From Candidatus Woesearchaeota archaeon (lineage in GTDB: Archaea > Nanobdellota > Nanobdellia > Woesearchaeales > GW2011-AR9), in contig CAMAVK010000004.1 in the NCBI GenBank assembly GCA_945861715.1, positions 784 through 64,783 on the forward strand: a stretch of 64,000 nucleotides of DNA, read 5' to 3'. Position 1 is the stretch's first letter, and each line of letters opens with the position of its first letter. Below, one piece after another: positions 29,585-50,445 of the stretch. The notes below the pieces were generated by a model, which did not search any database, was not told the DNA's origin, and saw only the letters and a list, made by a program, of their open reading frames with translations. The position numbers and the translations under genes are program-made.

Positions 29585-29952
29585 GGTAGGGTGGCGTAAG
29601 CCGCCTTTTGTTAGGCCCAAAGAAAAACCGTCATATATGTTTTTCCGATAGCCATTGAAAGCATTCTACTTAGCGTCGAATCGACTTGCACCAGGGGGGT
29701 TTCACCGTTTCATCGTTCCCACAAAAGACGTCGATGGGTTATCTCATGTATGTTGCCATACACTTCGCCAGGTCATTCCATTTTTGTGGACGTGTCGTGT
29801 CTGAGCCAGAGCCACGGAATTTCTCCGTCTGACATTGTATTCAGTCCCTTTTTTTAGGTGGGCGGACTTTCCTCACAGGCTAAATCATTTTACTGATCTA
29901 TGGGACTTATTGCATTCCCTAAAGCTTGCGTAAGCTTTCTGCCACTACTACC
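29585..29952 (-). ncRNA. rnpB: RNase P RNA
   Basis: The minus strand has GAGGAAAGUCCG (P4 5' side), GAAACGGUGAAAC and AACAAAAGGCGGCUUAC (P4 3' side). The termini ggtagtagtggc/gccaccctacc pair as P1. TATA-like CTTAAATA lies just upstream. Confidence 0.93.
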
Positions 29953-48611: not shown

Positions 48612-49085
48612 ATGGTTGATTTAATTGTTGGTGATAATGCTCCTGAGTTTTCGTTGTTAGATCATAATTCTAATTTGCACACGCTTCGTGAAGTTAAAGG
48701 AAAGTGGATTGTTTTGTATTTCTATCCCAAGGACAACACACCTGGGTGTACAGTTGAAGGTATTGATTTTTCTCGTCTTAAAGTTGAGTTTGATTCGTTG
48801 GGGGTGGTGATTTGGGGTGTTAGTCCGGATAGTCCAAAGAGTCATTGTTCATTTATGGATAAACAAAATTTGAGTATTGTTTTACTTTCTGATGAATCAA
48901 AATCGATGCTGGAATTATATGGGGTGTGGGCTAAGAAGAAGTTTATGGGAAAGGAGTATATGGGAGTTCTTAGAACTACTTTTTTAATTGATCCTAAGGG
49001 GAGGATAGCATTTATTTGGCGAGATGTTGCAGTTAAAGGTCATGCTTTGGATGTTTTGGAGACGTTGAAAAGGTTGAAGAAGTAA
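48612..49085 (+). CDS. bcp: Peroxiredoxin Bcp
   Basis: Motifs APEFSL, VLYFYPKDNTPGCTVE, GVSPDS..SHC and RTTFLIDPKG. Confidence 0.96.
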   Translation: MVDLIVGDNAPEFSLLDHNSNLHTLREVKGKWIVLYFYPKDNTPGCTVEGIDFSRLKVEFDSLGVVIWGVSPDSPKSHCSFMDKQNLSIVLLSDESKSMLELYGVWAKKKFMGKEYMGVLRTTFLIDPKGRIAFIWRDVAVKGHALDVLETLKRLKK

Positions 49086-49235
49086 GTTACTTTTGTTTAT
49101 TTTGCTTGCTTTTGTTTACATTTTTTGTTCTTAATTCTCTTATTTCTTGTGCATAGGATGTTAACTTAGCTGGATGATTGATTATATTCTTCCTCTATTT
49201 TTTATTGGGGAAGGTTATGTTCCTATTGCGATAGA

Positions 49236-49243
49236 TTTATAAA
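49236..49243 (+). promoter_or_regulatory. TATA box candidate for the ribosomal superoperon
   Basis: TTTATAAA about 25 nt before the GC-rich leader begins. Confidence 0.5.
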
Positions 49244-49264
49244 TAAAACCCATTTTTGCAGGGT

Positions 49265-49482
49265 TACATAGGTTCGTTTCGACGAATTAGGTTCGAGCAT
49301 CAAGGATCTGACGCCTAGTGCGTCTTAGCGCGTCAATCACACTGCGTCTTTGGAAAATCCGGACGGAAATGGTTGAAAGCGATTGGCCTGAAAAAGTGAC
49401 CATCGAGGTTTATTCTTTGATGGGATCTCGAAATAGGCTGTTACACACGTAATGAGGAAGGGAAATATCCCTATATTTTACA
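49265..49482 (+). promoter_or_regulatory. Long structured 5' leader of the rpl3 operon (candidate r-protein autoregulatory leader)
   Basis: GC-rich non-coding stretch with hairpins ttcgt-ttcg-acgaa, gacgc/gcgtc, catcgagg/ctttgatg and aggga/tccct. Confidence 0.55.
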
Positions 49483-50445
49483 ATGCCAAAAGTAAGTCAT
49501 CCACGTAGAGGAAGTATGCAGTACTGGCCACGGGCTCGCGCAAAATATTTACTTGCACGTATTCGAACATGGGCTAAAGAGTCTAAGGTAAAACCTCTTG
49601 GGTTTATTGGGTTTAAAGCTGGAATGACTCACGTTATGGCTCAAGATAATCATCCTAAGTCAATGACTAAGGGAGAACAAATTGCGTTACCTGCAACGAT
49701 GATTGAATGTCCTCCAATGACAGTTATTGGTGTATCATATTATAAAAAGACTGAAAATGGTCTTCGTAAAGTTGGTAGTATTCTTGCTCCGACTCTTGCT
49801 AAATCTGTTTCTCGTTTGTTTCCTGTCCCTAAAGTTGCAGGGAAGGGAGTAGATAGTGTTACTGATTTTGATGATTTAAGAATCATTGTTGCTTCGGGGT
49901 CTGACAAGGTTCCAAGTATTCAAACTAAGAAACCAAAAGTAATTGAGATTGCTCTTGGTGGTTCTAAAGCAGATAAGATTGGTTATGCTAAGGAGAAACT
50001 TGGAAAGGAACTTACTATCAATGATGTGTTTGATCGTGGTGTAGCAGTTGATATTCACGGAATTGGTAAGGGTAAGGGATTTCAAGGTACTGTTAAGCGG
50101 TTTGGTGTTCCTATTCGTCAACATAAAGCTGAAAAGACAAAGAGAGGTATTGCAACTCTTGGTTCTTGGACTCCTAAACGAGTTGAGTTTACGGTTGCTC
50201 AATCAGGAAAGATGGGATTTCATCTTCGTACTGAATACAATAAGCGTATTTTGAAGATTGCGACTGGAGAAGAAGTAAATCCAACTGGTGGAATTATTCG
50301 ATACGGGGTTGTTCGAAATCCTTGTGTATTGCTTAAAGGATCAGTTGTTGGTGCACAACGAAGAGCAGTTATGCTTACTTCCACTATTCGACAAAATAAA
50401 CCAATTTTGAAAGATGGTTATGATGTTGTAAAGGTGATTAAATAA
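49483..50445 (+). CDS. rpl3: 50S ribosomal protein L3
   Basis: Motifs PRRGSMQYWPR, GFKAGMTH, GKGFQGTVKRFG and GFHLRTEYNK. Confidence 0.98.
   Translation: MPKVSHPRRGSMQYWPRARAKYLLARIRTWAKESKVKPLGFIGFKAGMTHVMAQDNHPKSMTKGEQIALPATMIECPPMTVIGVSYYKKTENGLRKVGSILAPTLAKSVSRLFPVPKVAGKGVDSVTDFDDLRIIVASGSDKVPSIQTKKPKVIEIALGGSKADKIGYAKEKLGKELTINDVFDRGVAVDIHGIGKGKGFQGTVKRFGVPIRQHKAEKTKRGIATLGSWTPKRVEFTVAQSGKMGFHLRTEYNKRILKIATGEEVNPTGGIIRYGVVRNPCVLLKGSVVGAQRRAVMLTSTIRQNKPILKDGYDVVKVIK

Follow-up and report, generated by a model that had tools for sequence, protein, structure and literature searches.

A conserved two-domain RNA upstream of rpl3 in Woesearchaeota, a candidate ribosomal-protein leader

The intergenic region upstream of rpl3 in a lake archaeon of the Candidatus Woesearchaeota encodes a conserved, covarying RNA that probably acts as a cis-acting autoregulatory ribosomal-protein leader of the rpl3-rpl4-rpl23-rpl2 operon. 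The DNA analyzed, called the window here, is a 64,000-nucleotide stretch from a 98%-complete genome. Comparison with related genomes establishes the structure of the element, its conservation, and its fixed position. It is a real conserved RNA motif that is absent from Rfam 15 and from the literature searched, and its functional class is a familiar one: a structure that is conserved and covaries, placed in the 5' UTR of an operon for ribosomal proteins, is one mark of ribosomal-protein leaders and was found here. An earlier note on the same DNA had described a structured, lineage-specific leader of ~215 nt upstream of rpl3 that could adopt alternative folds. Its reading as a structured, lineage-specific leader upstream of rpl3 holds, the alternative folds do not, and the functional unit is narrower than had been drawn, being a two-domain RNA of ~125 nt at 49324-49451 (Table 1).

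The gene that follows the leader, rpl3, is the first of an L3-L4-L23-L2-S19 cluster, with L4, L23, L2, and S19 downstream on the same strand. The G+C content rises from ~0.28-0.30 in 49050-49250 to 0.49 in 49250-49400. Over 49265-49482 (218 nt), the plus strand has a predicted fold of -64.4 kcal/mol (z = -2.44; 5 of 200 shuffles as good), and the fold of the minus strand is unremarkable (z = -1.41). The comparative evidence for the leader structure is far stronger than this fold-versus-shuffle score. Elsewhere in the window, an archaeal RNase P RNA (RF00373, 124 bits) lies at 29587-29950 on the minus strand, and ARAGORN found no tRNA genes in the whole 64 kb.

Table 1. Features of the rpl3 leader and its surroundings, in window coordinates.
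Feature	Coordinates	Strand	Remarks
AhpC/TSA peroxiredoxin gene	48612-49085		5' neighbor of the leader's intergenic region
Intergenic region with leader	49086-49482		Between peroxiredoxin gene and rpl3
TATA box TTTATAAATAAA	49236-49247	+	Promoter of leader and rpl3; same box conserved in relatives
5' extension, three short hairpins	49265-49323	+	59 nt; contains catcaagg; other genera without it
Hairpin A, UUCG loop	49271-49288	+	Kept in related strain
Hairpin B	49289-49309	+	Rewritten in related strain
Hairpin C, gacgc/gcgtc	49310-49324	+	Kept in related strain
Leader core, both domains with short flanks	49324-49451	+	R1 match 90.9 bits, E = 6e-20
Domain 1	49329-49381	+	P1, internal loop, P2; covariation in 38 sequences
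P1	49329-49339 with 49370-49381	+	10/10 pairs change on both sides (38 sequences)
Domain 1 internal loop	CAC 49340-49342 opposite AA 49368-49369	+	
P2 hairpin	49343-49367	+	7/7 pairs change on both sides (38 sequences)
Domain 2	49385-49439	+	R2 match 74 bits; 55-nt hairpin
P3a	GGCCU 49385-49389 with AGGCU 49435-49439	+	GCCU/AGGC nearly invariant
A-rich loop	GAAAA(A) 49390-49394 opposite CGAAAU 49429-49434	+	
P3b	AG 49395-49396 with CU 49427-49428	+	Covaries in 50 sequences
Purine loop	between P3b and P4	+	UGA / GAU
P4	49400-49408 with 49415-49423	+	Loop UUUAUU; covaries in 50 sequences, many families
Spacer to start codon	49440-49482	+	GUUA; out-of-frame uAUG at 49452; hairpin AGGGA-AAUA-UCCCU at 49459-49472
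rpl3 (uL3)	49483-50445	+	Pfam Ribosomal_L3 at 1e-66; ATG at 49483

A blastn comparison with 40 relatives showed that seven other genera share a leader piece of ~60 nt (about 49383-49443) at 73-84% identity, and it lies upstream of rpl3 in all six genera whose loci were fetched. Set side by side, the upstream regions share a common plan, which runs from the TATA box through the 5' strand of P1, (N)ACUG, the P2 hairpin, UAAA, and UG with the 3' strand of P1 to a linker, GGCCUGAAAAGG, a purine loop, the P4 hairpin, CC-NNN-AAUAGGCUGUUA, a spacer, and the ATG. Domain 1 can be written as P1-[CAC]-P2-[AA]-P1', and domain 2 as GGCCU-GAAAA-GG...CC-NNN-AAU-AGGCU around hairpin P4. The two hairpin domains are independent and stand side by side, with no helix closing the element.

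A covariance model of the full element, R1 (123 positions, 34 pairs), was built from seven sequences, six from other genera and the window itself. In a 38-sequence alignment, whose fitting to R1 somewhat inflates the pairing and covariation figures, standard pairs occupy 90.6% of cells as against 29-43% with partners slid by 1-3 columns, both sides change in 30 of the 34 pairs, and none of 500 column shuffles reached the observed pairing values. Compensatory changes in P1 and P2 are already visible in the raw sequences and in RNAalifold run on a plain MAFFT alignment. For domain 2 alone (model R2, 65 positions), 92% of cells pair across 50 sequences from the whole order; GCCU/AGGC and the loop GAAAA are essentially invariant in these, and P3b and P4 covary. 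Within this extended hairpin, the conserved nucleotides are thus mostly those of the internal loops and of a single short helix, and the stems covary. The covariation test that the earlier note had called for is therefore strongly positive in both the 38-sequence and the 50-sequence alignments, from all of which one locus of an unpublished genome (L077, G244) was excluded. An open frame runs across the element in only 8 of 69 copies, so the element is not coding; a small ORF at 49318-49452 (44 aa) was likewise rejected as a coding gene, its frame not being conserved.

Within the window's family, R1 matches 106 of 114 genomes, representing 56 of 58 genera, with a single match per genome in 104 of the 106. 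Two genomes of the same genus without the element (G001 and G002) are 80-85% complete assemblies from which rpl3 itself is missing. For 35 R1 matches, the sequence reaches far enough downstream to show the next gene, and all 35 immediately precede rpl3 in the same orientation; in an independent set of loci fetched by the uL3 protein, the element precedes rpl3 in 68 of 68; this set carries the titles Candidatus Woesearchaeota, Nanoarchaeota, or Nanoarchaeia archaeon, and in some cases "uncultured Methanosarcinales" or "archaeon". Across the order (Woesearchaeota-type DPANN), R2 was run on 151 sampled genomes and matches 70 of them, belonging to more than 50 families; the count of 70 includes two unpublished genomes (G233, G244) on which no other claim rests. 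Every one of the 28 R2 loci checked in other families lies before rpl3, with a gap of 2-385 nt, as do two weak extra matches. About half of the 151 sampled genomes have no R2 match, either because they can do without the element or because theirs has diverged beyond what the model detects. Beyond the order, ~130 genomes of its class yielded one weak match. Other families carry a different 5' hairpin, e.g., GUGUUUAAA...UUUAAACAC, which indicates that domain 2 is the ancestral core and domain 1 a family-level form; P4 is also extended there by an AGUAC/UUCU internal loop and an apical hairpin.

A few matches and loci deserve separate mention. Those in G020 contig 2 and in G206 contigs 7 and 16 overlap or adjoin unrelated ORFs and are spurious. 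In one family genome (G086), the leader occurs twice with high scores (81 and 74 bits), on contigs C105 and C65, most likely because two strains were binned together. Another locus (L148) has tandem R1 matches at 262-352 and 380-483 upstream of one rpl3; the first scores 23.8 bits and probably reflects an insertion between domains 1 and 2 rather than a true duplication. The spacer between element and rpl3 in one locus of another family (L053, G219:C28) is 385 nt long and unusually rich in G+C.

All strings quoted in the earlier note were found in place by direct sequence check. These include the TATA sequence TTTATAAA (49236-43), the UUCG-loop hairpin UUCGU-UUCG-ACGAA (49273-86), the segments ctttgatg (49415-22), catcgagg (49401-08), catcaagg (49298-305), ttcgag (49292-97), and ctcgaa (49427-32), and the aggga/tccct hairpin before the ATG (49459-63 and 49468-72). 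The note's three gcgtc copies (49320, 49330, and 49344) also exist, but they are not alternative partners of a single gacgc (49310-14), as each has a partner of its own, in hairpin C, the base of P1, and P2, respectively.

Judging by comparison between genomes, the initial 59 nt (49265-49323) form a fast-evolving addition specific to the lineage. The distance from TATA box to element is 88 nt in the window versus a median of 38 nt in relatives. A related strain is represented by a 414-nt contig (depth 2.2) from another lake-water study, covering 49228-49437, and its identity to the window is 70% in the extension versus 95% in the core. The public runs listed for this DNA were lake-water DNA metagenomes, with no RNA data set among them; of the others examined, X7 gave sequence for 49570-49620 only, and X3 and X8 gave none. 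Three of its core substitutions fall at paired positions and all keep pairing (U-G to C-G, A-U to G-U, and C-G to U-G); the remaining core differences are in the unpaired 5' flank.

This extension holds one strand of the RNA switch suggested in the earlier note, in which catcaagg/ttcgag would compete with catcgagg for ctttgatg/ctcgaa and so toggle P4 with or without ligand. The long-range complementarity is real, with 14 interrupted bp and a duplex of -20.9 kcal/mol, but it is only marginally better than chance: dinucleotide shuffles average -15.3 +/- 2.8 kcal/mol and 4.3% of them are as good. Forcing the alternative fold costs 6.2 kcal/mol (-58.2 versus -64.4 kcal/mol), and the ensemble probability of the long-range pairs is 0.0003 versus 0.99 for P4. 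Other genera lack the competing strand along with the rest of the extension, and in the related strain catcaagg has been replaced by taattcga while its supposed partner ctttgatg is unchanged. The two strands of P4 are only 6 nt apart, and such a local hairpin should form first during transcription. Mutually exclusive conserved helices, as in a two-state riboswitch-like leader, were not found. Given the shuffle rate, energy cost, ensemble probability, and changes in the related strain, the switch is neither conserved nor predicted to form, and we give it very little credence; the local pairing of catcgagg with ctttgatg, which the earlier note had set against it, is the conserved helix P4.

The promoter arrangement places the element in the rpl3 mRNA. 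A TTTATAAA(T/C)AA box is present upstream of the element in 66 of 69 relatives' matches, and the near-identical box TTTATAAATAAC starts a median of 38 nt, mostly 23-40 nt, before the R1 match, which includes 6 flanking nucleotides. Given this conserved spacing and the usual archaeal TATA-to-start distance, the RNA of relatives is predicted to begin at the foot of P1. By the same archaeal promoter geometry, transcription in the window would start ~25-30 nt after the TATA box at 49236, at ~49262-49268. The rpl3 ATG follows P3a within ~16 nt (10-16 nt) in about 20 of 68 family loci. A gap of this size is too short to hold a second promoter, which makes the element part of the rpl3 mRNA, and in such genomes its standing as a 5' UTR element of the rpl3 transcript can be read from the gene layout.

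In the window, the ATG stands 43 nt after P3a, behind a further small hairpin (49459-72), and a sequence-variable hairpin just before the ATG is found in many relatives' spacers. No Shine-Dalgarno-like motif is present within 15 nt of the window's rpl3 ATG, though the 16S rRNA ends in CCUCCU, and no such motif is sequestered by the conserved helices. An out-of-frame uAUG ORF at 49452-49511 (~19 codons, by eye) overlaps the rpl3 start codon; it bears no likeness to the uL3 N-terminus. The window also has no U-run after P3a, as is the case for all 23 loci examined in its family. In other families (L055-L080), a run of at least 4 U (4-11) directly follows the 3' strand of P3a in 17 of 27 loci, and a run of at least 5 in 11 of 27, which suggests an attenuator-like arrangement there.

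No family of Rfam 15 matched the locus (48900-49700) at E <= 10. The SRP RNA is encoded on contig 2, the 5S rRNA on contig 1, and the 23S and 16S rRNAs on contig 2. With these RNAs and RNase P RNA encoded elsewhere and no Rfam match at the locus, the leader is not SRP RNA, 5S rRNA, or RNase P RNA, which disposes of the earlier note's caveat that the region might be a known ncRNA such as SRP RNA. A Woesearchaeota rpl3 leader was not found described in the full-text literature searched. Guide RNAs were also considered and rejected: an ACA is not conserved after P3a as it would be in an H/ACA RNA, and strings resembling the C and D boxes of a C/D RNA occur in the wrong order. The strand registers of the two internal loops do not fit a K-turn, sarcin-ricin, or UAA/GAN motif (by eye, against the motif consensus).

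Likeness to the regulator's rRNA site is common among ribosomal-protein leaders, and it is not obligatory. R1 matched the organism's own 23S rRNA only at E > 1, and motif and two-strand searches of its 23S, 16S, and 5S rRNAs gave only non-specific matches and nothing interpretable. By inspection, the element resembles neither the loop of helix 2 in 23S domain I (5'-UGGAU / UGAAA-3') nor helices 18-20. Individual candidate mimics were rejected. The linear order of GACUGAAAAGUUACUCCGGGGAUAACAGGCUGAU in the peptidyl-transferase region is similar, but the leader's GGCU-G part shows the covariation of a helix; the rRNA segment presumably pairs elsewhere, going by the E. coli secondary structure. 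A similar-looking segment of E. coli 23S domain I, GGGGGACCAUCC...AAGGCUAAAUAC, reads GGGGAGCAUUAAUCUCUAAAACUAAAUAC in the organism's own rRNA. Similarly, the archaeal-consensus AGCCUGAAAC is AUCUGAAAUC in this organism, facing the UGGAU loop.

Invariant internal loops on a covarying extended hairpin are the usual look of a protein site in ribosomal-protein leaders. Together with the single copy per genome and a position only before the main ribosomal-protein operon, they lead us to read the element as a leader of this kind. What this leader would bind, and with what effect on the operon, can be pictured as follows. After the 59-nt extension, the RNA would fold into its two independent hairpin domains, and a ribosomal protein made from the same operon would likely dock at the A-rich internal loops and GCCU/AGGC helix of domain 2. 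By precedent, this protein could be uL4 or uL3, uL4 being favored as candidate ligand by bacterial precedent only. Protein in excess of free rRNA would bind, clamp P3a and P4, and lower expression of the operon. In relatives with the ATG 10-16 nt after P3a, which is inside the expected ribosome footprint, the likely route would be a block to ribosome loading, and in other families with a U-run after P3a, it would likely be premature termination. A stronger form of this last idea, which we consider unlikely, is that domain 2 is a protein-dependent transcription attenuator, in which clamping of P3a before the U-run leads to termination, and that it has been re-used for translational control in the window's family. 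If true, it would be an archaeal, independently arisen counterpart of the E. coli L4/S10 attenuator; we know of no earlier ribosomal-protein-controlled attenuator in Archaea, so it would be the first.

Two readings dispense with a ribosomal protein. That the element is a cis element sensing no ribosomal protein, such as a 5'-terminal stabilizer protecting against 5'-end-dependent decay, a signal for processing, or a small-molecule, ion, or temperature sensor, has a minor but appreciable chance of being correct. P1 begins a few nucleotides from the predicted transcript start, like protective 5' stem-loops, yet loop nucleotides (GCCUGAAAAGG and AAUAGGC) that stay invariant in more than 50 families would be unnecessary in a simple stabilizer. 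A sensor would have to do without the multi-helix junction or pseudoknot that could form a ligand pocket, as the element has neither. The failure to find an rRNA likeness speaks for such a cis element, and its occurrence before rpl3 only, and not before other genes, speaks against it. We consider it quite improbable that the element is instead an independent small ncRNA gene that merely neighbors rpl3 and has a promoter, and in some lineages a U-run terminator, to itself. Every credible match lies next to rpl3 in the same orientation, and in the about 20 family loci with the ATG within ~16 nt, rpl3 must be transcribed through the element. A separate gene would be served by the TATA box directly in front of the element, and the U-runs of at least 4 in 17 of 27 other-family loci could end a discrete RNA of ~100-130 nt. 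Against a separate gene, relatives' spacers have no consistent second TATA box, and the window has none 27-34 nt before its ATG.

The autoregulatory leader thus remains the reading we favor. Feedback control by ribosomal proteins has been worked out in detail in bacteria, and to our knowledge archaea offer hardly any documented case, and the DPANN, with their small genomes and dependence on hosts, none. An order-wide RNA with strong covariation and a compact 55-nt hairpin with invariant loops provides a concrete, cheap target for binding assays with uL3, uL4, uL23, and uL2. Two possible read-outs can be compared as they occur in nature, since a U-run follows the hairpin in many families and a close start codon does so in others, and addition of the element to RNA family databases could improve the annotation of Woesearchaeota genomes.

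The leader of the E. coli S10 operon is controlled by L4 and has a hairpin next to a U-run for L4-dependent attenuation, and translation is also controlled. Like it, the Woesearchaeota element leads an operon carrying L3-L4-L23-L2, although the first gene is rpl3 rather than rpsJ. The combination of hairpin and U-run is also shared, but by other Woesearchaeota families (17 of 27 loci), and the counterpart of the translational control would be the close hairpin-to-ATG spacing in part of the window's family. Unlike the S10 leader, the element belongs to another domain of life with another transcription machinery, and there is no detectable homology between the two. Ribosomal leaders are widespread, and one candidate has been described before archaeal rplC-rplD-rplW-rplB, with the E. 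coli S10/L4 leader cited as precedent (PMC7247131). This L4-Archaeoglobi leader candidate (RF03135; Eckert & Weinberg 2020, PMC7247131) lies before the same genes and is the nearest described entity. Both are conserved structured RNAs with a proposed autoregulatory role, and in both the putative ligand comes from precedent only. The RF03135 model (gathering score 34.5 bits) finds 0 matches in the whole genome at E <= 10. In its published alignment, L4-Archaeoglobi has several stems, with a terminal CUGAU/AUCAG helix joining its two ends, and about one copy in two overlaps a methyltransferase gene (PMC7247131). In contrast to this closed architecture, the Woesearchaeota element has two hairpin domains that stand open next to each other, and the 5' UTR in which it lies is truly intergenic.
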